Below, one piece after another: positions 7,740 to 48,808 of a stretch of 64,000 nucleotides of DNA. This DNA comes from an uncultured Dehalococcoidia bacterium (GTDB lineage: Bacteria; Chloroflexota; Dehalococcoidia; Lucifugimonadales; Australimonadaceae): the NCBI GenBank assembly GCA_964560025.1, contig CAZLKC010000002.1, forward strand, positions 11,602 to 75,601. Reading direction: 5' to 3'. Numbering within the stretch: the first letter of the stretch is position 1; each line of letters begins with the position of its first letter. Position numbers and translations under genes: made by a program. The notes under the pieces were generated by a model. That model was not told the DNA's origin. It did no database searches and saw nothing but the letters and a program-made list of their open reading frames with translations.

Positions 7740-10700
7740 ATGTTCCATCCGGCGGTGGAGGCGTGGTTCGCGCGGCGCTTTGGGCAGCCGACGGAGGCGC
7801 AGGCGGCGGGCTGGCCCGCCATCGCCCAGGGCCGCCACACGCTGATCGCCGCGCCCACCGGGTCGGGCAAGACGCTGGCGGCGTTCCTGAACGCCGTGGA
7901 CGGGCTGGCGCGGCAGGCGGCGACGGGCGAATTGCCGGACGGCGCGCAGGTGGTCTACGTGTCGCCGCTCAAAGCGCTGGCCAACGACGTGCGCCACAAC
8001 CTGTTGGAGCCGTTGGAGGAGATAGCGGAGACGGCGCGCGAGATGGGCCTGCCCTTCGCAGAGATACGGGCGGCGGTGCGGACCGGCGACACGCCGCCTA
8101 GGGAGCGTGCGCTGAACGCCAAGCGCCCGCCGCACATCCTCATCACCACGCCCGAATCGCTCTTCATCCTGCTCACCTCCGAATCGGGACGGCGCGGGCT
8201 GACGGGCGTGCGCACGCTGATCCTCGACGAACTGCACGCCGTCGCGCCGAACAAGCGGGGCGCGCACCTGTCCATCAGCGTCGAGCGCCTCTGCCGCAAC
8301 TCCAAGCACCCCATCACCCGCGTGGGCCTCTCCGCCACGCAGCGCCCCATCGAGGAGATGGCGCGCTTCCTGACGGGCGCCGGAGACGCGGACAGCGGCG
8401 CGCCCGATTGCGCCATCGTGGACGTGGGACACCGGCGCTCGATGGACCTGGCCATCGAACTGCCGGACGACGAACTGGGGCCGATAGCGACGCACGAGCA
8501 GTGGGCGCAGGCGCTCGACGCCATCGCCAAGCTGGTGGAGCAGCACCGGTCGACCTTGGTGTTCGTGAACACGCGGCGGCTGGTGGAGCGCGTCGCGCAC
8601 CTGCTGACGGAGCGTCTGGGCGAGGAGCGAGTGGCGGCGCATCACGGATCGCTGTCGCGGGAGCGACACCTAGAGTCGGAGCGGCGATTGCGCGAGGGCG
8701 AGGCGTCGGTGTGCGTGGCCACGGCGTCGTTGGAACTGGGCATCGACATCGGCGAGGTTGACCTGGCGTGCCTCATCGGGTCGCCGCGCAACATCGGCAC
8801 GGCGCTCCAGCGCGTCGGACGCTCAGGCCACTTCCTCGGCGGCACGCCCAAGGGACGATTCTTCCCGCTGACGCGCGACGAACTGGTGGAGACGACGGCG
8901 CTGATTCGAGCGATGAAGGCGGGCAAGCTGGACGCGCTGACGATTCCGCCATGGCCGCTGGACGTGCTGGCGCAGCAGATCGTGGCGGCCACCGTCGGCG
9001 AGGAGTGGTGGGACGAGCGCGATCTGTACGAGTTCGTGCGGCGCGCCCATCCCTACCGCGAGTTGCCTTACGAACACTACCAACAGGTGCTGGAGGTCTT
9101 GGTGGAGGGCGTCGCCGGGCGCTGGGGGCGCAACGGGGCGTACCTGTACCGCGACGGGGTGAACGCGCGCGTGAAGGCGCGGCGCGGCGGGCGCATCGCC
9201 GCCGTAACCAGCGGCGGCGCCATCCCCGACACGGGCGACTATCTGGTGATGGCGGAACCGGAGGGCGTGTACGTCGGCTCCGTCAACGAGGACTTCGCCA
9301 TCGAGTCGGTGGCCGGGGACATCTTCCTGCTGGGCAATGCGCCGTGGCAGATACGGCGCGTCGAGGCGGGCGTGATGCGCGTGGCCGAGGCGCACGGCAA
9401 GGCGCCCACCATCCCCTTCTGGCTCGGCGAGGCGCCCGGGCGCACGCCCGAGCTGTCGGAGGAAGTGTCGGAGGTGCGGCGCGAGGTGGACGCGCGCCTC
9501 CACGCCCCGGAGCGAGCCGCCGCATGGCTGATGGAGCAGGGAGCGTCGCGCGAAGCGGCGGAGCAGGTCGTTGCCTACGTGGAGGAGGGCAAGCGAGTGC
9601 TGGGCCTTACGCCCACGCGGGAGCGCGTCATCGCCGAGCGCTTCTTCGACGAGGCGGGCGGGATGCAGTTAGTGATTCACTCGCCCTGGGGCAGCCGCGT
9701 CAACCGCGCGTGGGGCTTGGCGCTGCGCAAGCGGCTGTGCCGCACGTTCGACTTCGAGCTCCAGGCCGCCGCCACCGACGATGGGATCAACATCTCGCTC
9801 GGCCCGCAGCACTCCTTCCCCGCCGAAGAGGTGTTCAACTACGTGAAGGCGCAGACGGCGGAGCGCTTGCTGACGCAGGCGGTGTTCCAATCGCCCCTGT
9901 TCGGGACGCGCTGGCGCTGGACAGCCTCCCGTGCGTTGGCCTTGCTGCGCCAGGTGGGCGGCAAGCGCATACCCACGCCCATCCAGCGCATGCGCTCCGA
10001 CGACCTGCTGGCGGCGGTGTTCCCCGCCCAGGCCGCCTGCCAGGACAACCGCCTCGCCGGGGAGGACATCGAGCCGCCCGACCATCCGCTGGTGTTCGAG
10101 ACGCTGCGCGACTGTTTGACGGAGGCGCTCGACCTGGCAGGCCTGCAAGAGGCGTTGCGCGACATCGAGACCGGGCGCGTCGAGGTCTACGGCAAGGACA
10201 CCGTGCAGCCGTCGGCGTTCTCGCACCAGATTCTCAACGCTATGCCCTACGCCTTCCTCGACGACGCGCCGTTGGAGGAGCGCCGCGCCCGCGCCGTAAC
10301 GCTGCGCCGCGCCCTGCCCGAGGACGCTCGAGACCTGGGCGCGCTCGACCAGGAGGCTGTCGCCGCCGAATCGGCCGCCGCGTGGCCCGCGCCCCGCGAC
10401 GTGGACGATCTCCACGACGCGCTTCTCACTCTTGCTCTCCTGTCTGAGGACGACGTCAACGAACGCGCCGACGACCCTGCTCAATGGCGCGAGTGGCTCA
10501 ACGAGCTGGAGCGTGCCGGATGCGCTATGCGCCTGCATGCGGAGGGCAAGGAGTTTTGGCTTGCGACGGAGCGCTCGGCGCTCGTGGCCGCCGCCTACCC
10601 GGACGGCGAACTGTCGGGCGCGGTGTGGGGCAACGGCTCGCCGCGCGAGCAGGACGCGGCGATTGCCGACGTCGTGCGGGGCCGCGTGGAGTGCACGGGG

Positions 10701-12017
10701 CCGTTCACCACCGCTGAGTTAGCCGACCGCATGGCGCTCGGCGAGCACGCGGCGCGTGCGGCGGCGGCGCGCTTGGAGAGCGAGGGCCTTGCGCTGCGCG
10801 GGCGCTACCGCCAAGGCGCCATCGACGCGGGCGTGGACGAGTACTGCGACCGGCGCATCCTCGCCCGCATCCACCGCGCCACTATCGGACGCCTCCGCAG
10901 CGAGGTCGAGCCTGTCCCCGCCGCGTCCTACATCCGCTTCCTGCTGGAGTGGCAGCACGCCGCGCCGAGCAGCCGCTTGAGCGGCGAGGCGGGGCTGATG
11001 GAGGTTGTGGAGCAACTCCAGGGGTTCGAGGCGGCGGCGCAGGCATGGGAGAGCGCCATCCTGCCCGTACGCGTCAGGGGCTACACGCCCTCGATGCTCG
11101 ACCAGTTCTTCTTCAGCGGCGAGGCGACGTGGGGGCGGTTCGCTCGCCGCGCCGCCGCGCCCACCGGCGGCATCTCGCGCAACAGCCCCGTCTCCCTGGC
11201 GCTGCGCCAGGACACGGCGTGGCTGCTGGACGCGCTGCCGGAAGAAGCGCCGCAGCCCGGCGCCGCCGCCGAGGTGTACGACTACCTCCAGCGGCGCGGC
11301 GCCTCCTTCCTGCCCGACATCGTGGCGGAGGTGCGCCGCCTGCCCAGCGACGTTGAGGACGCGTTGTGGCAGCTGGTGGCCGCGGGGCGCGTAACCGCCG
11401 ATGGGTTCGGGGCGCTGCGCGGCCTCATATCGGGCGCCGCGCGCCGCGCCGCCGCGCCATCCAGGCGCTCGCGCTTCGCCAAGCGCCCGCGCGTGCGCTC
11501 CCACCAGAGCCGCTGGACGCTCCTCCACGCCGATGGTCAGCCGCTCCCGCTCGCTCTGGGCAACGGCCTGGGCAAGAACGGTGGAGCGGGGCGCACGATA
11601 GAGGAGGAAGCGGTGGACGCGCGTGCGGCGCAACTCCTGCGTCGCTACGGCGTGGTATGCCGCGAGGCGCTCGCGCGGGAGCAGATGGCGCCGCCGTGGC
11701 GGATGCTGCTGCGCTCCTTCCGCCGCGCCGAGGCGCGCGGGGAGATACGCGGCGGGCGCTTCGTCGCAGGGTTCGTCGGTGAGCAGTTCGCGCTGCCCGA
11801 CGCGGTGGAGGCGCTGCGGACGGTGCACAAGCGCCCGCCGGAAGGCGAGGTCGTGCGCCTGTCGGCGGCGGATCCGCTGAACCTGGTGGGCATCCTCACG
11901 CCAGGCGCCCGCGTGCCCGCCGCCTCAGGCAACGAGGTCGTCTACCGCGATGGCGCCCCGATGGAGTCGGCGGCCCCAACGGAGGCGGCCCCGGCGGAGG
12001 TGGGCGCGGAGGCGTAG
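7740..12017 (+). CDS. lhr: Lhr-family ATP-dependent DNA helicase (DEAH box, large C-terminal extension)
   Basis: About 1425 aa. AAPTGSGKTLAAF (Walker A), ILDELH (DExH), SLELGIDIG, GRSGH. Track ORF starts at 7728, but ATG 7740 has GGAGG 5 nt upstream. Confidence 0.9.
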   Translation: MFHPAVEAWFARRFGQPTEAQAAGWPAIAQGRHTLIAAPTGSGKTLAAFLNAVDGLARQAATGELPDGAQVVYVSPLKALANDVRHNLLEPLEEIAETAREMGLPFAEIRAAVRTGDTPPRERALNAKRPPHILITTPESLFILLTSESGRRGLTGVRTLILDELHAVAPNKRGAHLSISVERLCRNSKHPITRVGLSATQRPIEEMARFLTGAGDADSGAPDCAIVDVGHRRSMDLAIELPDDELGPIATHEQWAQALDAIAKLVEQHRSTLVFVNTRRLVERVAHLLTERLGEERVAAHHGSLSRERHLESERRLREGEASVCVATASLELGIDIGEVDLACLIGSPRNIGTALQRVGRSGHFLGGTPKGRFFPLTRDELVETTALIRAMKAGKLDALTIPPWPLDVLAQQIVAATVGEEWWDERDLYEFVRRAHPYRELPYEHYQQVLEVLVEGVAGRWGRNGAYLYRDGVNARVKARRGGRIAAVTSGGAIPDTGDYLVMAEPEGVYVGSVNEDFAIESVAGDIFLLGNAPWQIRRVEAGVMRVAEAHGKAPTIPFWLGEAPGRTPELSEEVSEVRREVDARLHAPERAAAWLMEQGASREAAEQVVAYVEEGKRVLGLTPTRERVIAERFFDEAGGMQLVIHSPWGSRVNRAWGLALRKRLCRTFDFELQAAATDDGINISLGPQHSFPAEEVFNYVKAQTAERLLTQAVFQSPLFGTRWRWTASRALALLRQVGGKRIPTPIQRMRSDDLLAAVFPAQAACQDNRLAGEDIEPPDHPLVFETLRDCLTEALDLAGLQEALRDIETGRVEVYGKDTVQPSAFSHQILNAMPYAFLDDAPLEERRARAVTLRRALPEDARDLGALDQEAVAAESAAAWPAPRDVDDLHDALLTLALLSEDDVNERADDPAQWREWLNELERAGCAMRLHAEGKEFWLATERSALVAAAYPDGELSGAVWGNGSPREQDAAIADVVRGRVECTGPFTTAELADRMALGEHAARAAAARLESEGLALRGRYRQGAIDAGVDEYCDRRILARIHRATIGRLRSEVEPVPAASYIRFLLEWQHAAPSSRLSGEAGLMEVVEQLQGFEAAAQAWESAILPVRVRGYTPSMLDQFFFSGEATWGRFARRAAAPTGGISRNSPVSLALRQDTAWLLDALPEEAPQPGAAAEVYDYLQRRGASFLPDIVAEVRRLPSDVEDALWQLVAAGRVTADGFGALRGLISGAARRAAAPSRRSRFAKRPRVRSHQSRWTLLHADGQPLPLALGNGLGKNGGAGRTIEEEAVDARAAQLLRRYGVVCREALAREQMAPPWRMLLRSFRRAEARGEIRGGRFVAGFVGEQFALPDAVEALRTVHKRPPEGEVVRLSAADPLNLVGILTPGARVPAASGNEVVYRDGAPMESAAPTEAAPAEVGAEA

Positions 12018-12026
12018 GGCGCAGGG

Positions 12027-12749
12027 ATGATACGAGCGGTCTTCTTCGACTTCTACGGCACGCTCGCGGGATGGCGGTCGGGCGGCGAGCGCATCCAGGC
12101 GCAGGCCGCGCGCGCCGAGGGTCTACGCGTGGACGAGGGGCTGCTCGGCGCAGGCTACCGCGCGGCGGATGCCTACCTAGCGGAGGAGAACGCCGTCCGC
12201 CCCGTGTCGCGCCGCACGGCGGCGGAGCGCGACGCAGTGTTTGCGGAGTACGAGCGTCGCTTGCTGGCGGAGGCGGGGGCGCAGGTGGACGCGGCGATGG
12301 CTATGCGGGTGTGGCGGCGGGTGGACGCCATGCCGAAGCAGCTCGCCGCCTACGACGACGCGCTGCCGACGCTGACGGCGCTGCGCGCCCTGGGCGTGAC
12401 CACGGGCGTCATCTCCAATATGGGTGGTGGGCTGGACGCGCACCTAGAGGAGGTGGGGCTGCAGGCGGCGGTGGACGCGGCGGTCTCCAGTGGCGAAGTT
12501 GGCGTCGGCAAGCCGCACGCGCTCATCTTCCGCACTGCCCTAACGCGGGCGGGAGTCGCCGCGGCAGAGGCGCTCCACGTCGGCGACAGCTACAGCGGCG
12601 ATGTGCTGGGGGCGCAAGGCGCGGGTATGGAGGCGGTGTTCCTCGACCGCGACGGCGCGGAGTACGCGCCCGTCGGCTGCGAGGTGATTCAAACGCTGCG
12701 CGCGGTCGTGCCGTTGGTGGAGGCGCGCGGCCTGCCCGGCTCTAGATGA
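12027..12749 (+). CDS. HAD-superfamily hydrolase (subfamily IA-like)
   Basis: 240 aa. Motif I FFDFYGTL, motif II ISN, C-terminal HVGDSYSGDVLGA. Confidence 0.8.
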   Translation: MIRAVFFDFYGTLAGWRSGGERIQAQAARAEGLRVDEGLLGAGYRAADAYLAEENAVRPVSRRTAAERDAVFAEYERRLLAEAGAQVDAAMAMRVWRRVDAMPKQLAAYDDALPTLTALRALGVTTGVISNMGGGLDAHLEEVGLQAAVDAAVSSGEVGVGKPHALIFRTALTRAGVAAAEALHVGDSYSGDVLGAQGAGMEAVFLDRDGAEYAPVGCEVIQTLRAVVPLVEARGLPGSR

Positions 12750-40562: not shown

Positions 40563-40656
40563 AGAGGGAGGGTCGGGGTGTGACGCGCGCGTATTGACAA
40601 GCGCGGCGCGCGCCGCAAACCTTAGCCTACGGCCCCGCCGCTAAGAGACCGCCCTC

Positions 40657-42165
40657 ATGCCCGCCGCCCCCCAACGCAACTTCGAATCGCGCACGCTCTA
40701 CCACGGCGACAACCTGCCCTTCCTGCGCGGGATGAACTCCGGCACGGTGGACCTCATCGCCACGGATCCGCCGTTCAACAAGAGCAAGGACTTCCACGCC
40801 ACGCCCGACAGCATCGCCAGCGGCGCGCGGTTCGTCGACCGGTGGTCGTGGGACAGGGACGTGCACGAAGAGTGGGTGGACGCCATCAAGGACGACTGGC
40901 CCGCTGCGTGGTCGGTCATCGAGTCCACGCGCATCGCGTCGGGAGACGACATGGGCGCGTTCCTCTGCTGGCTCGGCGTGCGCCTGATGGAGATGCACCG
41001 CGTCCTGACCGACGACGGCAGCATCTACCTGCACATCGACCACACCGCCCACGCCTACGTCAAGACGCTGATGGACGCCATCTTCGGGCGCAAGAACTTC
41101 CGCAACGAGATTGTGTGGCAGAGAATGAGCGGAACCAAAAGCAATGCCAAACGGTTCTTCACTCAGCATGACACCTTGCTGTACTACGTCAAATCAGACA
41201 ACAGCGTATGGAACCGAGAATTGGAACCGTTCACGGATGAGGAGGTCGAAGCATCATGGTTCAAATACGTCGATACAGACGGACGCCGGTATAAGGTAAA
41301 TGACCTAACTGCTCCCGGTAGGCAGGGTGGCCATCAATACGAGTTTTTGGGCGCAGTACGACGCTGGCGATATCCGTTGGACAAGATGAATGAACTGTTG
41401 GCGATCGGACAGATTCATCACAAGTCATGCACCCCTGGTGCCGGTAACGATGTCGCTGTCAGGAAACGCTACTTGGACGAAATGGATGGGAGGCCACTCG
41501 GCAGTGTTTGGACGAACATCAAGAATCTGAACCGAAATAACACCGAACGCACCGGTTACCCAACCCAGAAGCCGCTTGCTCTCTATGAGCGCATCATCAG
41601 GGCAAGCAGCAACGAGGGCGACTTGGTGCTCGACCCGTTCTGCGGTTGCGCGACCACGCCCGTGGCGGCGGAGCGGCTTGGCCGCGAGTGGGTAGGCATA
41701 GACATCTGGGACGGCGCGCACCAGATGGTGCTCGACCGCCTGCGCGACGAGAAGCTCGCCGTCCCGGACGCGGAGTCGGGCGCCAGCCGGAGCCTCATCA
41801 CCTTTGGCAGCGTAACCTACTCCACCACGCCGCCCGTGCGGACGGACGAGGGGAAGACCGCCGCGCCGACGCTCAACCTCAAGGTGCAGATACCGGAGCC
41901 GCCCGGCCCCAAGTTGACGAACGCGCAGATGAAGGCGCAACTCGTCGAGCGCAACGGCATCGTCTGCGCGGGCTGCGACCGCACGTTCGACGATGAGCGT
42001 TACCTGCAACTCGACCACAACGCGCCGCGCTCGCAGGGCGGCTTGCACCACATCAGCAACCGCCTGCTCCTCTGCGGCCCGTGCAATCTCGCCAAGAGCA
42101 ACACGCTGACGCTGGAGGGTCTGCGCCGCCACAACCGCGCGAACGGCTGGATGGCGAAAAGGTGA
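40657..42165 (+). CDS. Beta-class N6/N4 DNA methyltransferase fused to a C-terminal HNH endonuclease domain
   Basis: 502 aa. IATDPPF (motif IV) near the N-terminus, PTQKP, VLDPFCGCATT (motif I). C-terminal CAGCD...LQLDHNAPRSQGG...NRLLLCGPCNLAKSN is an HNH with CxxC pairs. Confidence 0.85.
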   Translation: MPAAPQRNFESRTLYHGDNLPFLRGMNSGTVDLIATDPPFNKSKDFHATPDSIASGARFVDRWSWDRDVHEEWVDAIKDDWPAAWSVIESTRIASGDDMGAFLCWLGVRLMEMHRVLTDDGSIYLHIDHTAHAYVKTLMDAIFGRKNFRNEIVWQRMSGTKSNAKRFFTQHDTLLYYVKSDNSVWNRELEPFTDEEVEASWFKYVDTDGRRYKVNDLTAPGRQGGHQYEFLGAVRRWRYPLDKMNELLAIGQIHHKSCTPGAGNDVAVRKRYLDEMDGRPLGSVWTNIKNLNRNNTERTGYPTQKPLALYERIIRASSNEGDLVLDPFCGCATTPVAAERLGREWVGIDIWDGAHQMVLDRLRDEKLAVPDAESGASRSLITFGSVTYSTTPPVRTDEGKTAAPTLNLKVQIPEPPGPKLTNAQMKAQLVERNGIVCAGCDRTFDDERYLQLDHNAPRSQGGLHHISNRLLLCGPCNLAKSNTLTLEGLRRHNRANGWMAKR

Positions 42166-42181
42166 GCGGGATAAGCGCAGC

Positions 42182-42442
42182 GTGGCGCGCCTAGAGCTGG
42201 AATACTCGCTGCATGCGATCAAGTCTATGCGCGACCGCGAGATTCCCCAGGCCTGGGTAGAGTCCACTGTGGCGGAGCCTGCACTCCGCGAACCCGACCG
42301 TCAGCGCCCTGGCGTTGAACTCTTCTTCCGCCCCATCCCGGAGTTCGGCGGCCGAGTCCTCTGCGTTGCCGTCAACACGCGCGTTGACCCATGGCGGGTG
42401 GTAACGCTATTCTTTGACAAGAGAAAGAGAGGAGCGCTATGA
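42182..42442 (+). CDS. DUF4258-domain protein (putative toxin)
   Basis: 86 aa. YSLHAIKSMRDREIPQAWVESTV resembles DUF4258. ATGA overlap with the next gene. Confidence 0.6.
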   Translation: MARLELEYSLHAIKSMRDREIPQAWVESTVAEPALREPDRQRPGVELFFRPIPEFGGRVLCVAVNTRVDPWRVVTLFFDKRKRGAL

Positions 42443-42639
42443 AGCTCAGAGTGGACAAAGAGAGCGATGCCCTCTACCTGCGCCTCGACGACTCTCGCAT
42501 CATCGAGTCGGAAGAGGTGGCATCCGGCGTGGTGCTCGACTACAACGAGGCGAACGAGGTGGTCGGCGTGGAGGTGCTCTACCTCTCTACGCGCTCCTCC
42601 GACCTCGACCTCTCGTCGCTCCAGTTCGAGACGGCCTGA
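42439..42639 (+). CDS. DUF2283-domain protein (putative antitoxin)
   Basis: 66 aa. MKLRVDKESDALYLRLDD...VVLDYNEANEVVGVEVL is the typical DUF2283 pattern. Confidence 0.65.
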   Translation: MKLRVDKESDALYLRLDDSRIIESEEVASGVVLDYNEANEVVGVEVLYLSTRSSDLDLSSLQFETA

Positions 42640-42685
42640 CCTCCCGCTCCGTCGTTCCCGCATCCCCCCGTCCGCGCCGCTGCTG

Positions 42686-42712
42686 CTCTTCGAGTTCGCT
42701 CAGGGCGAACGG
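42686..42712 (+). repeat. REP-like repeat, copy 8
   Basis: ctcttcgagttcgctcagggcgaacgg; extended similarity 42673-42715 to 43026-43075. Confidence 0.6.
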
Positions 42713-42801
42713 TCGGCGTATATGCTGGCGCGTAAGGAAGTCCGGCGGCGGGTGGTTGAACCTGCCGCGGCGCTCGTAGCGGGCGTAAGGGGGTACGCGC
42801 A

Positions 42802-43023
42802 ATGAGGGAGATGCCGATTTCGGGGTGGGCGATCATCGGCGCGGTGGTCGGCGCGGGGGTAGGCGTCGTCGTTGGCCTGCTGGTTGCCCAAGCCCTCGTC
42901 GGGCAGGGCATCCTGGGGGACGAGGCCGCCGGTTGGGGGCGCTTTGCCCTGGCGCTCATCGGCGCCGCTGTCGTCGGCCTGTTGGGCGTTGGGATGGGCG
43001 ACTGGGCAACGAGAAGGTTCTGA
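42802..43023 (+). CDS. Small Gly/Val-rich membrane protein (73 aa, two hydrophobic segments)
   Basis: GWAIIGAVVGAGVGVVVGLLVAQALV ... FALALIGAAVVGLLGVGMG. No family recognised. Confidence 0.4.
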   Translation: MREMPISGWAIIGAVVGAGVGVVVGLLVAQALVGQGILGDEAAGWGRFALALIGAAVVGLLGVGMGDWATRRF

Positions 43024-43043: not shown

Positions 43044-43072
43044 CGCCCTTCGAGTTCCCTCAGGGCGAACGG
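43044..43072 (+). repeat. REP-like repeat, copy 9
   Basis: cgcccttcgagttccctcagggcgaacgg (consensus copy). Confidence 0.65.
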
Positions 43073-43084
43073 TCGAGGCATGGG

Positions 43085-43927
43085 CTAGTGGGTGAGGAAG
43101 TCTAGGACGAGGCGGTTGAACTCGTCGCGGTGCTCGTATTGGACGAAGTGGCCTGCGCCGCGCCAGATGTGGACGCGCAGGTTGGGGATCTCGCCCATCG
43201 CGCGCAGCACGCCCTCCACGGGCACCATCCAGTCCTGCCCGCCCCATAGCAGGAGCGTCTCGGCCTTCAGGTTGGCGGCCTCGCGCTGGAGGTTGCTCAT
43301 ATTGGCGCTGCCGCCGAATCGGGCGGCGGCCTCGAGGTGGCCGGGGATGGTTGCGGCGGCGAAGCGGCGGTCGACCAGCTCCTTGCTGCGCAGCGCGGGA
43401 TTGGGGATGAAGTAGTCCATCATCCGCTGCATGCGCTCGTAGGTTGGCTCTTCGCGGAACTCCATCAGCGTCTTGATGCCCTCGGCGGGCGTGGGAGAGA
43501 GCATCAGCGGCAGGCCGGTGGAGGCGTAGGAGGCTTGGAGGATGAGTTTGCCGGTGCGGCCGGGGTAGTCGAGGCCGAAGCGGACGCCGAATGGGCCGCT
43601 GAAGGAGGAGCAGTAGAGGTGGGTGGTCTCGATGCCGAGGTGGTCGAGCAGGCCGCGCATCAGTCCGGCGAGGAAGCCGTCGACGGTCTTGCCCTGGGGG
43701 AGCGCGGCGGTCTTGTCGGAGCCGCCGTAGCCGGGGAGGTCTACCAGCAGCATGCGGAAGTGCTTGGAGAGTTCGGGGACGTTGAAGCGGGTGTTGTCCC
43801 ACGCGTTGGCGCCGGGGCCGCCGCCGTGGAAGGTCATCAGCGCGGGGCCGGAGCCGACGTCGTTGTAGTGGAGTTCGACGCCGTCGATGGTGGCGTAGCG
43901 GTCGGAGTCTGCCTTGTCGAGGGTCAC
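43085..43927 (-). CDS. Alpha/beta hydrolase, meta-cleavage-product (C-C bond) hydrolase-like, paralog 1
   Basis: 280 aa. FHGGGPGANAW, GAGHFVQYEH. Nucleophile elbow reads CSSFS instead of GxSxG. Confidence 0.8.
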   Translation of the reverse strand: MTLDKADSDRYATIDGVELHYNDVGSGPALMTFHGGGPGANAWDNTRFNVPELSKHFRMLLVDLPGYGGSDKTAALPQGKTVDGFLAGLMRGLLDHLGIETTHLYCSSFSGPFGVRFGLDYPGRTGKLILQASYASTGLPLMLSPTPAEGIKTLMEFREEPTYERMQRMMDYFIPNPALRSKELVDRRFAAATIPGHLEAAARFGGSANMSNLQREAANLKAETLLLWGGQDWMVPVEGVLRAMGEIPNLRVHIWRGAGHFVQYEHRDEFNRLVLDFLTH

Positions 43928-43949
43928 GCGGTCTCTCCTGCGGGCGGGG

Positions 43950-44780
43950 TTAGTCGGTGAGGAAGCGGATGACGAGGCGGTTCCACTCGTCGGCGCGCTC
44001 GTACTGGGGCCAGTGGCCGCATCCCGCGCCGAAGAGGTGGAGGCGCGCGTTGGGCATCTCCCACATCGCGGCGAGGGCGCGGTCCATCGGCACGTCGCGG
44101 TCGGCGGCGCCCCAGATGATGAGGGTGGGGGCGGCGACGCGTCCGATGAAGTTGAGCAGCCCCTCCATCGGGCCGGAGATGTTGCCGCGCGCCTCCTGGT
44201 AACCGGGCGCGTGGGCGGCGGCGTAGCGGAGTTCGATCGCCTCGTCGCGTAGTTCGGGGCGCGATATCTGGATCTCCATCACCTCGCGCAGGCGCTCCAT
44301 CGTCGGCTCGCGCCCGAAGGCGGCGGTGTAGGCGGCGCCCTCGACGGGCATAGGGTTGAAGAGGCTCTTGCCCAGGCCGGTGGGCGCGTCGACGACGATG
44401 CGGCCGACGCGCTCGGGGTGAAGCGCGGCGAGTTTGAGGACGGGGCCCGCGCCGGGCGAGCCGCCGTAGAAGTGGGCGCGGTCGATGCCGAGGGCGTCGA
44501 GGAAGTCGCGCAGCACGCGGGCATAGAAGTCGAGGCGCGGCTCGCTGCTCTTCACCTGCTTGTCGGAGCCGCCCTGGGGCGGCAGGTTGACGAGCATGGT
44601 GCGGAAGCGCTGGGAGAGGGCGTGAAGGTTACGGCGGTTCTGCCCCCATGCGGTTGCGCCGAACGCGGTTGCGGCGACGCAGACGAGGGGCGGCCCGTCG
44701 CCCGCCTCGTGGTAGTGGACGCGGACGCCGTTGGCGTCGGCGTAGCGGCTGGTGTTCTCGGCGGTGAGCGTCATCGCCAT
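43950..44780 (-). CDS. Alpha/beta hydrolase, C-C hydrolase-like, paralog 2 (divergent)
   Basis: 276 aa from ATG 44780. GGSPG elbow and GCGHWPQYE retained, but the HGGGPG oxyanion motif is replaced by VAATAFGA. Confidence 0.75.
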   Translation of the reverse strand: MAMTLTAENTSRYADANGVRVHYHEAGDGPPLVCVAATAFGATAWGQNRRNLHALSQRFRTMLVNLPPQGGSDKQVKSSEPRLDFYARVLRDFLDALGIDRAHFYGGSPGAGPVLKLAALHPERVGRIVVDAPTGLGKSLFNPMPVEGAAYTAAFGREPTMERLREVMEIQISRPELRDEAIELRYAAAHAPGYQEARGNISGPMEGLLNFIGRVAAPTLIIWGAADRDVPMDRALAAMWEMPNARLHLFGAGCGHWPQYERADEWNRLVIRFLTD

Positions 44781-44827
44781 TGCGTCGCTCTCCTTGCGCG
44801 CCGGAGGGCTGCGCCCGCGGCTAGGGG

Positions 44828-45667
44828 CTAGTCGTTGGCGATGAAGTCCATAATGAGGCGGTTGAACTCGTCGGACTTCTCGTACTGCACCCAGTGGCCG
44901 CACTCGGGGAAGACGTGCACCTGCGCGTCGGGGATGCGCCAGAGCATATTCAGCGCGAAGTCGAGGGGCGAGAAGCGGTCGTCGCGCCCCCAGATGATGA
45001 GCGTCTTGGCCTGCACCTTGTGCAGTTCGGAGGTGAAGTCGGGGGTGACGCGGTTGGTGGAGTTGCGGCGCGCCTCGATGTGCTGCGGGCGGCTGAGGCC
45101 CGCGTTGTGGCGCATGTCGATCAGTTCGTCCGTCTTGAACTTCTCGTCGTAGACGAAGAGGTCGACGATCTTGGCCATCTGCTCGCGGGAGGGGTTGTCC
45201 CACCACGCGTTCAGCGCCTTGATGCCCTCGAGCGGACGGGGCATGAAGTAGGAGGGGCCGCTGCCGGCCGGGCCCATCACGACGAGTTTGCCGACGCGGT
45301 CGGGGTAGTCGATGGCGAAGCGCAGGGAGGTGGCGCCGCCGAAGGAGTTGCCGATGAAGTGGGCCTTGTCGACGCCCAGTTCGTCGAACATCGCCTTGAT
45401 GGAGGCGGCGTTGTAGCGGGTGGCGTCGCCGTTGATGACGACGGGGTCGGACTTGCCGTACTGGGGCAGGTCGAGCAGCATCGTGCGGTAGGTCTCGGAG
45501 AAGGCGCCGATGTTGGTGCGGAAGTTGCTCCAGCCGGAGGCGCCGGGGCCGCCGCCGTGCAGCATAATCACCGCCTCGCCCGAGCCCGCCTCGTTGTAGT
45601 GGAGGCGGATGTCCCCGGCCTGGACGTACTTGCTGGTGCTCTCTTCGGTGAGGGTCTGTGTCGCCAT
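44828..45667 (-). CDS. Alpha/beta hydrolase, C-C hydrolase-like, paralog 3
   Basis: 279 aa from ATG 45667. MLHGGGPGASGW, GNSFGG, WGRDD, CGHWVQYE. Confidence 0.85.
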   Translation of the reverse strand: MATQTLTEESTSKYVQAGDIRLHYNEAGSGEAVIMLHGGGPGASGWSNFRTNIGAFSETYRTMLLDLPQYGKSDPVVINGDATRYNAASIKAMFDELGVDKAHFIGNSFGGATSLRFAIDYPDRVGKLVVMGPAGSGPSYFMPRPLEGIKALNAWWDNPSREQMAKIVDLFVYDEKFKTDELIDMRHNAGLSRPQHIEARRNSTNRVTPDFTSELHKVQAKTLIIWGRDDRFSPLDFALNMLWRIPDAQVHVFPECGHWVQYEKSDEFNRLIMDFIAND

Positions 45668-45705
45668 AGTCGCGCCTCTCTGATGCTTCGGTGTTTCGCG
45701 GGGGG

Positions 45706-46542
45706 CTAGCCGAGGAAGTCGAGCAGCAGGCGGTTGAAGCCGTCGGCGTGCTCGTACTGCGCCCAGTGGCCGCAGCGGGGGAAGACGTGCAGCCGCGCGT
45801 TGGGGATGTGCCACATAAACTTCAGGGCGTGGTCGAGGGGGACGAACAGGTCGTCCCGTCCCCAGACTACGAGGGAGGGCGCCTTGATCTTGCCCAACTC
45901 CATCGTGAGGTCGGGCAGCATCGGGTTGGAGCGCCGCTGGCCGTCGATGTGCTCGGGGTGCTCCAGCAGGCCCGCGACGCGCTGCTCCAGCAGTTCCTCC
46001 GTTACGAATGAGGAGTCGTAGACGAAGAGGTCGATCATCTCGCGGAAGGACTCTTTGGTCTGCTTGACGTAGACGTCGCGCAGCGCCTTGATGCCCTCCA
46101 TCGGCAGCGGGTTGAAGAGGCTCTTGCCGCCGCCCGCCGCGCCCATCAGCACCAGTTTCTCCACGCGCTCGGGGTTTTGGATGGCGACGACGGCGGAGGT
46201 TCCGCCGCCCATCGAATTGCCAACGAAGCTGGCCTTGTCGATGCCGAGCGCGTCGAGGAAGTCGACGAAGATGCGGGCGTTCTCGTGCAGGCGGTCGGAG
46301 TCGGCGCCGATGACGATGGGGTCGGACTTGCCGAAGCCGGGCATGTCGACGAGCAGGACGCGGTAGCGCTCCGACATAGGGCCGATGTTGCGGACGAAGT
46401 TGCTCCATCCGCTGGCGCCGGGGCCGCCGCCGTGGATGAAGATGACGGGATGGCCGGAGCCGGCTTCGTTGTAGTGGATCTTGAAGCCGTTGGCGTCGGC
46501 GTAGCGGCTGGTGCTCGCTTCGGTCAGGGTCTGCGTGGCCAT
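45706..46542 (-). CDS. Alpha/beta hydrolase, C-C hydrolase-like, paralog 4
   Basis: 278 aa. IHGGGPGASGW, GNSMGG, WGRDD, CGHWAQYE. N-terminus MATQTLTE is shared with paralog 3. Confidence 0.85.
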   Translation of the reverse strand: MATQTLTEASTSRYADANGFKIHYNEAGSGHPVIFIHGGGPGASGWSNFVRNIGPMSERYRVLLVDMPGFGKSDPIVIGADSDRLHENARIFVDFLDALGIDKASFVGNSMGGGTSAVVAIQNPERVEKLVLMGAAGGGKSLFNPLPMEGIKALRDVYVKQTKESFREMIDLFVYDSSFVTEELLEQRVAGLLEHPEHIDGQRRSNPMLPDLTMELGKIKAPSLVVWGRDDLFVPLDHALKFMWHIPNARLHVFPRCGHWAQYEHADGFNRLLLDFLG

Positions 46543-46618: not shown

Positions 46619-47470
46619 CTAGCCGTATTCGAGCGCCTCTTTCAGTTCGAAGATGCGCGCGTCCACCTCTTGGGAGATGGCGGGGGGCATAGGCGCTTCG
46701 CGGTTGAGGTAGGTGTCGAGCAGCTCTAGTTCATCGAATATCTGGAAGCAGTCCACGTCGCGCTGGAGCCACGCGGAGAGGTACTGAGTGCGGGTGGCCA
46801 CGTCCTTGGCGATGGAGAATTGATAGACCTGGCGGAGGTTGTCCTTGAGGTAGGAGATGACGGGCATAAAGTCGGCGTCGCCGCTGATGAGGACGGCCAC
46901 GTCGTAGTTGGGCATCTTGGCGATCATATCGACGGCGATGCCGATGTCCACGCCCTTCTCGCCGAGGCGCGTGCCGAGGTAGTAGAGGGCGCCGTCGTCG
47001 CGGCGTTCGATGCGGTAGGGCTGGTACGGGCGGATGGAGTATTGGCCGACGTACTTGAACTCGAGGAAGTCGGTGTCGCGCTGGAGGTTGGAGAAGACGC
47101 GCTCGCGCAGCGTCTCGAAGTATTGGCGCTCGCGGTCGTACCACTCCTTGGCGGCCTCGGTCACCTCCTCCATCGTGAGGGCGGGCACGTCGTAGCTGTA
47201 GTTGTCGATGATGTTCTGGGCGAGGCGAATGCTCTCCGACCAGGGGGTGATGGAGGCGGCGTGGTACCAGTAGACGCGGACGAGGCGGTGGTCGAGGTGG
47301 GTCGCCTCGTTGAACTTCTCGATGACGCCGGAGAAGAAGTCGCGCCAGTGGAAGTGGCGTTCCTCCAGTTGGTAGGAGGGGTATTCTTCGCCGGAGCGGA
47401 AGGAGAATTGGCGAAGGTTGCTGCGGAAGTTCTGGCCGTCGACGAATACCACGGTGCGGAGCGGGTTCAT
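46619..47470 (-). CDS. NYN/LabA-like (PIN-related) ribonuclease-domain protein
   Basis: 283 aa. VVFVDGQNF ... EKGVDIGIAVDMI ... YDVAVLISGDADFMPVI. Confidence 0.75.
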   Translation of the reverse strand: MNPLRTVVFVDGQNFRSNLRQFSFRSGEEYPSYQLEERHFHWRDFFSGVIEKFNEATHLDHRLVRVYWYHAASITPWSESIRLAQNIIDNYSYDVPALTMEEVTEAAKEWYDRERQYFETLRERVFSNLQRDTDFLEFKYVGQYSIRPYQPYRIERRDDGALYYLGTRLGEKGVDIGIAVDMIAKMPNYDVAVLISGDADFMPVISYLKDNLRQVYQFSIAKDVATRTQYLSAWLQRDVDCFQIFDELELLDTYLNREAPMPPAISQEVDARIFELKEALEYG

Positions 47471-47605: not shown

Positions 47606-48808
47606 ATGGCGCTAGACCTGAACAAGACGGCGGCGCAACTGGGCGGGCTAACGGCGGGCCTGCGGCAGCGTGGCGAGGCTCGGGCGGACGCGCTCGCGCT
47701 CGCGCTGACGGCGCTGCGCGAGGCCGACCCGGAGGCGGTGGAGGCGCGCCGCGCCGGGGGGCGCGTAACGTGGCTCGTCGCGGGCGTGGAAGAGCCGCTG
47801 CACGCCGCGTTCGCCGCGCCGCCCTTGCCGGACGACTACGCGGCGCTGTCGGTGGACGGCTCGCACGTCGACGTAGACCGCCACTCGCCCGCGCGCTGCT
47901 ACCTCATCAACATCGGCTCGGCGGCGCTGCGCTACGGCGCGCGGCCGGGCGCGGAACTGCGCAGCACGCCGACGCTGTACGCGCGCGACGAGGAGTTGGC
48001 GCTGGCCGACCCTGCGGCGGCGCGCGACGTGGCGGTGGAGGGGCCGCTGCTGGGCATGATGCGCGCGGTCGCCGAGGCGGAGGCGTTAGCCGATCTGGTG
48101 GAGGCGTCGCCGCCGGACATTCCGGCGGTGGCGCTGCTCGACGGCACGCTGGTGCTGTGGGGGCTGACGGGGCAAGGCTACCCGGAGTTCGTGCGAAGGC
48201 GCTTGCTGGAGGAGGGGTTGCTGCCCGCGCTCGACCGCCTGCGCTCAGCCGCCGAGGGGAGAACGCTGGCGGTCGCGTCGTACGTCAGCCTGCCGCGCAG
48301 CACGGAGGTGGTGAACGCGCTGCGCCTGCACGTCTGCCCCTATGAGCGGGTGGACTGCGACGCGCATTGCGGCGCGCTCCGTTCGGGAACGCGCCCGTGC
48401 GACGCAGTAGGCGGCGTTACGGACGGCGAGTTGGCGGCGGCGGCGCTGCGGCCTGGAGAGCGGTCGGCGGCGTTCCGCAGCAACTCGAGCGTGGTGGGCG
48501 AGCACTACGGCCCGCACGCGGTGCGCTTCTTCTACCTGCACGTGGGTGAAGAGGTGGCGCGGGTGGAGACGCCGGAGTGGACGGCGCAGGATTCGCAGGC
48601 GATGGCGCTGCTGCACGGGGCGCTGGTCTCGCAGGCGGACAAAGGTCACGGCTACCCCGTGGCGCTTCAGGAGGCGCACGAGCAGGCGGTGATCAGCGGG
48701 CGCGACCGGCAGGCGTTCGCGCGGCTGGTCGAGGAAGCGATGACGGCGGAGGGGCTGCCGACGGCGACGTCGCAGAAGGCGCGCAGCAAGCGCACCCGGT
48801 GGGTTTAG
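47606..48808 (+). CDS. NurA-domain 5'-3' nuclease
   Basis: 400 aa. LSVDGSHVD, ALLDGTLVLWGL, GHGYPVALQEAHEQAVISG match NurA signatures as I recall them. Confidence 0.7.
   Translation: MALDLNKTAAQLGGLTAGLRQRGEARADALALALTALREADPEAVEARRAGGRVTWLVAGVEEPLHAAFAAPPLPDDYAALSVDGSHVDVDRHSPARCYLINIGSAALRYGARPGAELRSTPTLYARDEELALADPAAARDVAVEGPLLGMMRAVAEAEALADLVEASPPDIPAVALLDGTLVLWGLTGQGYPEFVRRRLLEEGLLPALDRLRSAAEGRTLAVASYVSLPRSTEVVNALRLHVCPYERVDCDAHCGALRSGTRPCDAVGGVTDGELAAAALRPGERSAAFRSNSSVVGEHYGPHAVRFFYLHVGEEVARVETPEWTAQDSQAMALLHGALVSQADKGHGYPVALQEAHEQAVISGRDRQAFARLVEEAMTAEGLPTATSQKARSKRTRWV

Follow-up and report, generated by a model that had tools for sequence, protein, structure and literature searches.

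Type IIC/IIG restriction enzymes (MmeI, Eco57I, BpuSI and BtgZI) combine a DNA methyltransferase and a nuclease in one chain, mostly as an N-terminal PD-(D/E)XK nuclease, a gamma-class (NPPY) methyltransferase and a C-terminal recognition domain, and a single recorded enzyme, BtgZI, has its methyltransferase ahead of the nuclease (PMC4081073). Such combined restriction-modification (R-M) enzymes can shift the specificity of both activities together, and those covered by the 2014 review of Type II enzymes join PD-(D/E)XK nucleases to gamma- or alpha-class methyltransferases only (PMC4081073). The genome of an uncultured Dehalococcoidia bacterium of the Chloroflexota (assembly GCA_964560025.1, contig CAZLKC010000002.1, of which positions 11,602 to 75,601 were analysed as a window of 64,000 nucleotides) encodes a single-chain protein that differs from these enzymes in having a beta-class DPPF methyltransferase, a central recognition domain and a tethered C-terminal HNH domain. 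Because the review gives PD-(D/E)XK nucleases only, a beta-class methyltransferase with an HNH domain appears to be a new make-up among combined R-M enzymes. The methyltransferase-HNH fusion gene is an open reading frame (ORF) at window positions 40657..42165 (+), with an ATG start, 502 codons and a stop codon. Like the Type IIC/IIG enzymes, its product has one nuclease active site per chain and a recognition module that is putatively shared by both activities; its specificity, like theirs, apparently diverges across the family through changes in the recognition domain, and like MmeI it has no obligatory partner gene.

Other described proteins resemble parts of the fusion protein. The Type III subunit EcoP15I Mod, its best structural match, is likewise a beta-class adenine methyltransferase with a central variable recognition domain, and the recognition domains of mod genes are exchanged between alleles; Type III systems differ in that the fusion lacks a res gene, its nuclease being a fused HNH domain without an ATPase motor. 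M.MboIIA, M.RsrI, CcrM and M.BceJIV have the sequence and fold of the catalytic core and the motif order in common with the fusion, and probably dimeric action as well, but possess no nuclease domain, any restriction enzyme being a separate protein. Methyltransferase-Mrr_cat fusions of phages carry a nuclease-fold domain behind the methyltransferase at the same position as the HNH domain, but theirs is a PD-(D/E)XK-like tail and they reside in phage genomes.

The best reading of the gene, with a probability of about 0.5, is that it encodes a stand-alone, single-chain restriction (or nicking)-modification enzyme, functionally of the Type IIC/IIG kind. A first-pass annotation, made from the letters of the window alone, had proposed a self-contained R-M enzyme, and this proposal stands because of a recognition domain that is swapped as a cassette, a tethered nuclease domain that is conserved under purifying selection, the absence of a partner gene, non-redundant copies with unrelated cassettes in the same genome, horizontal spread, and a sister family with a nuclease-fold tail. 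In such an enzyme the central domain would read a specific DNA sequence, the methyltransferase would methylate that sequence, and the HNH domain, on a flexible tether of ~20 residues, would cleave DNA that lacks the methyl mark, in one strand or both, close to that sequence. Both activities would share recognition, so that a cassette swap would change methylation and cutting together and the family could diversify its specificity freely; the evolutionary signature of shared recognition, free exchange of the recognition domain beside a conserved nuclease, is seen. Beta-class methyltransferases usually act as dimers, and a dimer would bring two HNH sites to the DNA and might make a double-strand break, whereas a lone chain would only nick. 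For this scheme we infer nuclease activity, its dependence on methylation, the modified base, the oligomeric state and the cut position.

The gene is divided as follows:
40657..42165, +, whole gene: beta-class DNA methyltransferase carrying an HNH nuclease domain at its C-terminus (ORF, PF01555 and PF01844, ~120 full-length homologues)
40657..41118, +, N-terminal methyltransferase core, residues 1-154, with long helices and motif IV DPPF at 40765-40776 (alignments)
41119..41544, +, variable target-recognition domain cassette, residues 155-296, low in guanine plus cytosine (GC) and swapped in orthologues (GC, alignments)
41545..41751, +, block binding S-adenosylmethionine (SAM), residues 297-365, with PTQKP at 41560-41574 and motif I VLDPFCGCATT at 41626-41658 (alignments)
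41752..41964, +, linker, residues 366-436: a conserved structured piece, then a disordered, proline-rich tether at about residues 401-420 (alignments, model confidence)
41965..42165, +, HNH nuclease domain, residues 437-502 (Pfam HNH, invariant residues, model)

Both halves of the protein are recognised by Pfam: N6_N4_Mtase (PF01555) at residues 31-356 (161.1 bits against a cut-off of 26.7, E 5e-47) and HNH (PF01844) at residues 437-482 (32.7 bits against a cut-off of 21.4, E 8.5e-8). The motifs lie at residues 37-40 (DPPF), 302-306 (PTQKP), 324-334 (VLDPFCGCATT) and 437-477 (CAGC...LDH...N...CGPCN), and those of the methyltransferase follow the permuted beta-class order of motif IV, then the recognition domain, then X/I. 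The 502-residue frame, the beta-class motif order and the C-terminal HNH domain had all been described in the first-pass annotation, and every motif is where that annotation placed it; the linker that it put at ~60 residues is also present, but measures about 70. DPPF, PTQKP and DPFCGCATT are intact and nearly invariant across the family alignments (24, 119 and 120 members). DPPF instead of SPPY/F in motif IV points to N6-adenine methylation, and to judge from this motif the enzyme probably acts on adenine N6.

The SAM-binding block matches those of MboIIA, M.BceJIV, CcrM and RsrI. An AlphaFold2 model of the protein (mean predicted local distance difference test score, pLDDT, 88.4; predicted template modelling score 0.75) matched only methyltransferases in Foldseek, of which EcoP15I Mod (4zcf) was the best (E 8e-20), followed by M.BceJIV, MboIIA, RsrI and CcrM (E 1e-15 to 8e-20, EcoP15I Mod included). 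The entire architecture had no match among solved structures (Foldseek) or viral predicted ones (BFVD), and NCBIfam profiles all scored far under their cut-offs for the protein. No match to a Hint (intein splicing) domain was found in it; with the HNH domain terminal and behind a conserved linker, an intein or homing endonuclease inserted in a methyltransferase was rejected. The 64-kb window contains no second copy of the fusion.

The HNH domain possesses the zinc cysteines C437, C440, C473 and C476, the catalytic residues D453-H454, N468 and N477, and K480, each of which is invariant in an alignment of 119 sequences. Profile searches and alignment of the catalytic residues, the checks that had been proposed for this region, thus bear the domain out, and on these residues it is catalytically intact. 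Its secondary structure is modelled as beta-beta-alpha, and it aligns residue by residue with Cas9-type HNH domains and also with IscB-type ones. It shares the CxxC...DH...N...CxxCN..K beta-beta-alpha-metal motif with the HNH domains of Cas9 and IscB, with Septu PtuB and with the HNH Type II restriction enzymes KpnI, MnlI and Hpy99I, but the fusion differs from these in having no RuvC, guide RNA, ATPase or DNA-recognition domain belonging to the HNH itself. Matches of the C-terminal region to models of IscB (34 bits against a cut-off of 175), PtuB, REase_II and Cas9 are weak.

The tether that precedes the HNH domain (residues 404-414 disordered, pLDDT < 50) follows a linker piece, residues 380-400, that is conserved and confidently modelled (pLDDT 96 and 85 within 381-400) and bears the motif YST.PPVRTD, in which R395 and D397 are invariant. 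The linker and HNH module together (residues 380-502) matched 286 cluster representatives at E <= 1e-10, and nine of ten representatives checked are pieces of the same fusion. Between the window gene and its ortholog on the syntenic contig L163, the ratio of nonsynonymous to synonymous substitution rates is 0.13 in the N-terminal core, 0.09 in the SAM block, 0.08 in the linker and 0.14 in the HNH domain; every aligned part, the nuclease included, is therefore under purifying selection.

HNH is a common effector of modification-dependent nucleases such as McrA, TagI and VcaM4I (PMC12707154), which is the attraction of a Type IV-like scheme in which the methyltransferase domain reads methylated DNA and the HNH domain cuts it. 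That scheme is scarcely credible: with its catalytic motifs and those that bind SAM all intact and nearly invariant, the domain should methylate, and an enzyme that created the sites it cuts would be lethal to its host.

The recognition domain, in the middle of the gene, is a cassette that has been swapped. GC content drops from ~0.67-0.70 to 0.47-0.56 over positions 41050-41650, the cassette having 0.504 versus 0.657 and 0.675 in the flanking parts of the gene. Alignments delimit a conserved N-terminal core (about residues 8-155), a hypervariable middle (~156-298) and the SAM block (299-365), with median identities to family members of 76%, 29% and 81%, respectively, and the cassette ranges from 78 to 171 residues across the family, in two size classes. 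One homolog (P0003) is 84% identical to the window protein in the N-terminal core and 86% in the HNH domain, but only 37% in the recognition domain, whereas another (P0014) is 71% identical in the recognition domain and 58% and 45% in the other parts.

The exchange can be followed at one chromosomal site. Two contigs, L163 and L165, have the gene order of the window on both sides, with a carboxyltransferase, a hydrolase, isocitrate dehydrogenase, malate dehydrogenase and a 211-residue ORF before the fusion, and four hydrolases, NYN, NurA and ArgJ genes after it, and the flanking DNA of the syntenic contigs is 88-93% identical to that of the window. L163 matches the window at 87% up to 41118, not at all across 41119-41544, and at 90.6% over 41545-42172; L165 matches at ~90% in the N-terminal core, with homology ending at the same base, 41118. 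The breakpoints of the cassette are thus at 41118/41119 and 41544/41545, and the alleles of the window, L163 and L165 (502, 444 and 462 residues) carry three unrelated cassettes. The L165 allele (10696-12084) keeps the N-terminal core, but its C-terminal half is far more diverged and extends 31 residues past the HNH domain. A further contig, L166, has an empty site, a 247-nucleotide spacer (10757-11003) between the same flanking genes, and a malate dehydrogenase 89% identical to that of the window. The three alleles and the empty site constitute a natural experiment, in which alleles that share a core but differ in cassette would be expected to methylate different motifs.

Where a genome has two or three copies of the fusion, their cassettes are always unrelated (16-29% identity). 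At one locus (L013, 9389-12135) two fusion genes are in tandem, and another (L023, 10001-12051) has a partial extra copy.

The fusion belongs to a large family. The 120 best database matches (E < 1e-174, 54-78% identical, mostly full length) carry both Pfam domains in 119 cases, many of them on megabase-sized contigs, and among genomes chosen one per species at least 598 relatives were identified, of which the best 80 were used for comparisons of loci. Most relatives are in metagenome-assembled genomes of Chloroflexota, as are 56 of the 80 loci, the others, from at least nine further groups, including Poribacteria, 'Poriferihabitaceae', Latescibacterota, Nitrospira, and Alpha- and Gammaproteobacteria; further hosts are Flavobacteriaceae, Acidimicrobiales, an order of acidobacteria and, as the one archaeon, a Nitrosopumilus. 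Between phyla, proteins are up to 72% identical over the full length. The malate dehydrogenase of the window's own host is 85-97% identical to proteins on contigs of metagenome-assembled genomes, and the few of these with a name are assigned to Chloroflexi/Chloroflexota. Among the database names of the homologs, one is 'DNA methyltransferase' and the rest give none; an exact look-up of the window protein among assemblies found no record, and full-text literature searches found no paper on a methyltransferase-HNH fusion of this kind. The first-pass annotation had allowed that the fusion might be a common type already characterised: it is common in metagenomes, but the literature yielded no characterisation, and the family, though common in nature, is apparently uncharacterised.

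Taxon names and bin labels suggest that the relatives come from marine-sponge microbiomes. Enrichment and lateral transfer of R-M genes have been described for sponge symbionts (PMC8163846), which are also rich in methyltransferases (PMC4453008), and a further report is consistent with enrichment and lateral transfer of these genes (PMC6697440). If the fusion is a combined R-M enzyme, the family would help to explain this long-noted excess and lateral transfer.

The survey of distribution and neighbourhoods that had been suggested found no conserved partner gene when all ORFs of at least 70 residues from the 80 loci and the window were clustered. ABC-transporter ATPase and Uma2 genes recur in the flanks, not linked by position. 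The only recurrent adjacent gene is a transposase of the IS1595 family, which abuts the fusion in 13 of the 80 loci. Terminal inverted repeats of 19-33 bp, many of which start GGGnnTTATA, enclose transposase and fusion in nine of the 13 (L009, L010, L020, L022, L024, L031, L036, L064 and L078, at about positions 8.7-12.7 kb of each locus), forming elements of 2.9-3.6 kb in hosts of at least three phyla (Chloroflexota, Alpha- and Gammaproteobacteria, Flavobacteriaceae). The family has thus spread horizontally and is carried on IS1595 transposons in other genomes. Subgroups of the IS1595 family reportedly carry passenger genes (Siguier and co-workers, 2009, are said to have described them), but no description of a methyltransferase-HNH cargo was found in the literature; in these copies, a candidate R-M gene travels within a compact transposon. 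The element of L010 has a third ORF (11517-12173, 218 residues) without a Pfam match. Near the copy in the window, neither a transposase nor IS1595 ends nor inverted repeats on its flanks were found, and it was rejected as an IS1595 passenger.

Mobility of this kind raises the possibility of a selfish gene, in which homing or nicking by the HNH domain would aid the gene's own spread, or gene conversion of its cassette, and the methyltransferase would protect carriers. The presence/absence polymorphism at one chromosomal site would suit such a gene, as would the cross-phylum identity of up to 72%, the recurrence of breakpoints at the same codon boundary, the carriage by IS1595 transposons in at least nine loci, and a GC content under that of the flanks in high-GC hosts. 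IS1595 transposition, however, accounts for the mobility without the HNH domain; the window copy, with neither transposase nor element ends, is stably syntenic in three genomes ~10% diverged; and homing endonucleases usually recognise one long site and have no swappable methyltransferase recognition domain. A selfish gene is on balance quite unlikely as an explanation by itself, and it is compatible with an R-M enzyme that acts selfishly instead of being an alternative to one.

The phage relatives of the fusion are of a different form. Records covering at least 80% of the protein were found in none of 50,697 cultured-phage and none of 72,556 plasmid records, and the matches that exist cover the methyltransferase part only, at ~40% identity (Streptomyces and Mycobacterium phages among them). 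The closest relative without HNH is gp48 of Streptomyces phage Hippo (L167, 2465-4105; 41% identical over residues 14-376), which has a recognition domain homologous to the window cassette and, according to Pfam, a C-terminal Mrr_cat/NA-iREase1 domain with a PD-(D/E)XK-like fold. Among the 76 IMG/VR relatives for which an ORF could be identified, 72 have a tail homologous to this Mrr-like domain, with a conserved D.G.DG...VK.G motif, and one (L083), a true fusion, has HNH. This clade of methyltransferases hence habitually bears a C-terminal nuclease-fold domain, which by sequence is HNH in the cellular members and Mrr-like in those of phages. The sister family (Hippo gp48 and IMG/VR loci L082-L160) is large and labelled just 'DNA methylase', and full-text searches found no paper on phage methyltransferase-Mrr_cat fusions.

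An origin in a phage or an integrative and conjugative element had been put forward with the first-pass annotation. An origin in one of these or in a plasmid, for instance as an anti-restriction methyltransferase with a packaging- or terminase-associated HNH domain, draws on the phage methyltransferases just described, on the many IMG/VR contigs with relatives and on the true fusion in one of them. The searches leave it very improbable: full-length phage and plasmid records are absent, viral relatives overwhelmingly bear the Mrr-like tail instead of HNH, BFVD has no match to the whole architecture, and the window contains no transfer RNA gene and no IS1595 ends near the fusion, which sits among syntenic housekeeping genes.

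A more serious competitor, though itself unlikely, is an orphan methyltransferase whose HNH domain does not restrict but serves as a DNA-binding anchor or regulatory module, or acts on repair or recombination intermediates. Some of what speaks for it also weighs against a combined R-M enzyme. The window gene is surrounded by housekeeping genes, and the loci are outside defence islands. PADLOC, run on the whole protein, returned methyltransferase models only and no known defence system, so that just this part is recognised as a known defence component. The best Pfam match of the sister family's tail is a family named for an inactive restriction-endonuclease fold, and the C-terminal module of the fusion clade might therefore be a DNA-binding domain and not a cutter. 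The general abundance of methyltransferases in sponge symbionts (PMC4453008) also suits an orphan enzyme. To the points against a combined enzyme must be added that each chain has a single HNH site, with no second methyltransferase to give protection; that a cassette swap would leave the host genome at first unmethylated at the new sites; that one of the 120 best matches (P0008) has no HNH domain; that in L059 and L063 (10001-11441) the reading frame changes between methyltransferase and HNH, as a frameshift, decay to a pseudogene or faulty assembly could explain; and that for every family member the case for a combined enzyme is built from sequence and models. On the other side, an anchor would have no need of HNH catalytic residues that are all invariant and under purifying selection, and rampant exchange of recognition domains, with non-redundant cassettes in paralogues, marks conflict systems, not housekeeping epigenetic methyltransferases.

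A single-chain R-M enzyme thus remains the preferred reading, and if the HNH domain cuts or nicks unmethylated cognate DNA, the fusion would represent a new combined R-M architecture of beta-class methyltransferase, central recognition domain and C-terminal HNH. The family would then be a large natural library of small (430-550 residues) sequence-specific nucleases or nickases, with a specificity that depends on a cassette of 80-170 residues that can be exchanged, of use as reagents and in engineering. The wider picture is put forward tentatively, at somewhat less than even odds: the gene would be a founding example of a class, as yet uncharacterised, of restriction (or nicking)-modification enzymes made of one protein, composed of a beta-class methyltransferase, a plug-in cassette and a tethered Cas9-like HNH domain, with hundreds of natural specificities, that may move between bacterial phyla and archaea within microbiomes of the sponge type, in part aboard IS1595 elements of 3 kb, and that would have a sister class with an Mrr-like domain in phages.

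No nuclease, helicase or specificity gene adjoins the fusion gene, in agreement with the first-pass annotation, and neither the window nor the 80 related loci include a res gene (superfamily 2 helicase with nuclease); a Type III R-M system was rejected for lack of this partner. Genes of the Uma2 family (PF05685, putative restriction endonuclease) recur at distances of up to 10 kb from the fusion in loci of Chloroflexota (L039, L055, L067, L073, L079 and others). The features next to the fusion gene in the window are:
42182-42442, downstream of the fusion, DUF4258 gene (Pfam)
42439-42639, downstream of the fusion, DUF2283 gene (Pfam)
42802-43023, glycine- and valine-rich ORF of 73 residues, within the segment 42173-43085
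40594..40599, +, TTGACA hexamer, a possible -35 element on weak evidence (present; conserved in L163)
40603..40616, no strand, 14-bp palindrome GCGGCGCGCGCCGC, probably non-functional (count not above chance; absent from L163)

Pfam confirms that the next genes are a DUF4258/DUF2283 pair, as had been noted, but not that they belong with the fusion: the adjoining segment 42173-43085, which holds the pair and the 73-residue ORF, has no counterpart in L163 or L165, which makes it an insertion or deletion in its own right, and the pair does not recur across the 80 loci (ORFs of at least 70 residues). An operon with this toxin-antitoxin-like pair was rejected because the linkage is not conserved.

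The TTGACA hexamer and the palindrome upstream of the gene are both present as had been reported. No -10 box lies 16-18 nucleotides from TTGACA, and a sigma-70 scan found no promoter at 40594. The suggestion that the palindrome is an operator was abandoned, as the window contains eight perfect 14-bp palindromes versus 14.5 expected from first-order Markov simulations, and of the two features only TTGACA is conserved in the orthologous locus L163.

Beyond the fusion, an NYN-domain gene (46619-47470, -) is divergent from a gene for a NurA-like nuclease (47606-48808, +), a pair conserved in L163 and L165 and unrelated to the fusion. Four alpha/beta-hydrolase paralogues in tandem (43085-46542, -) are likewise conserved in both contigs, and a 114-nucleotide direct repeat (42685-42798 and 43045-43158, 72% identical) resembles the relic of the 3' end of a further hydrolase paralogue.

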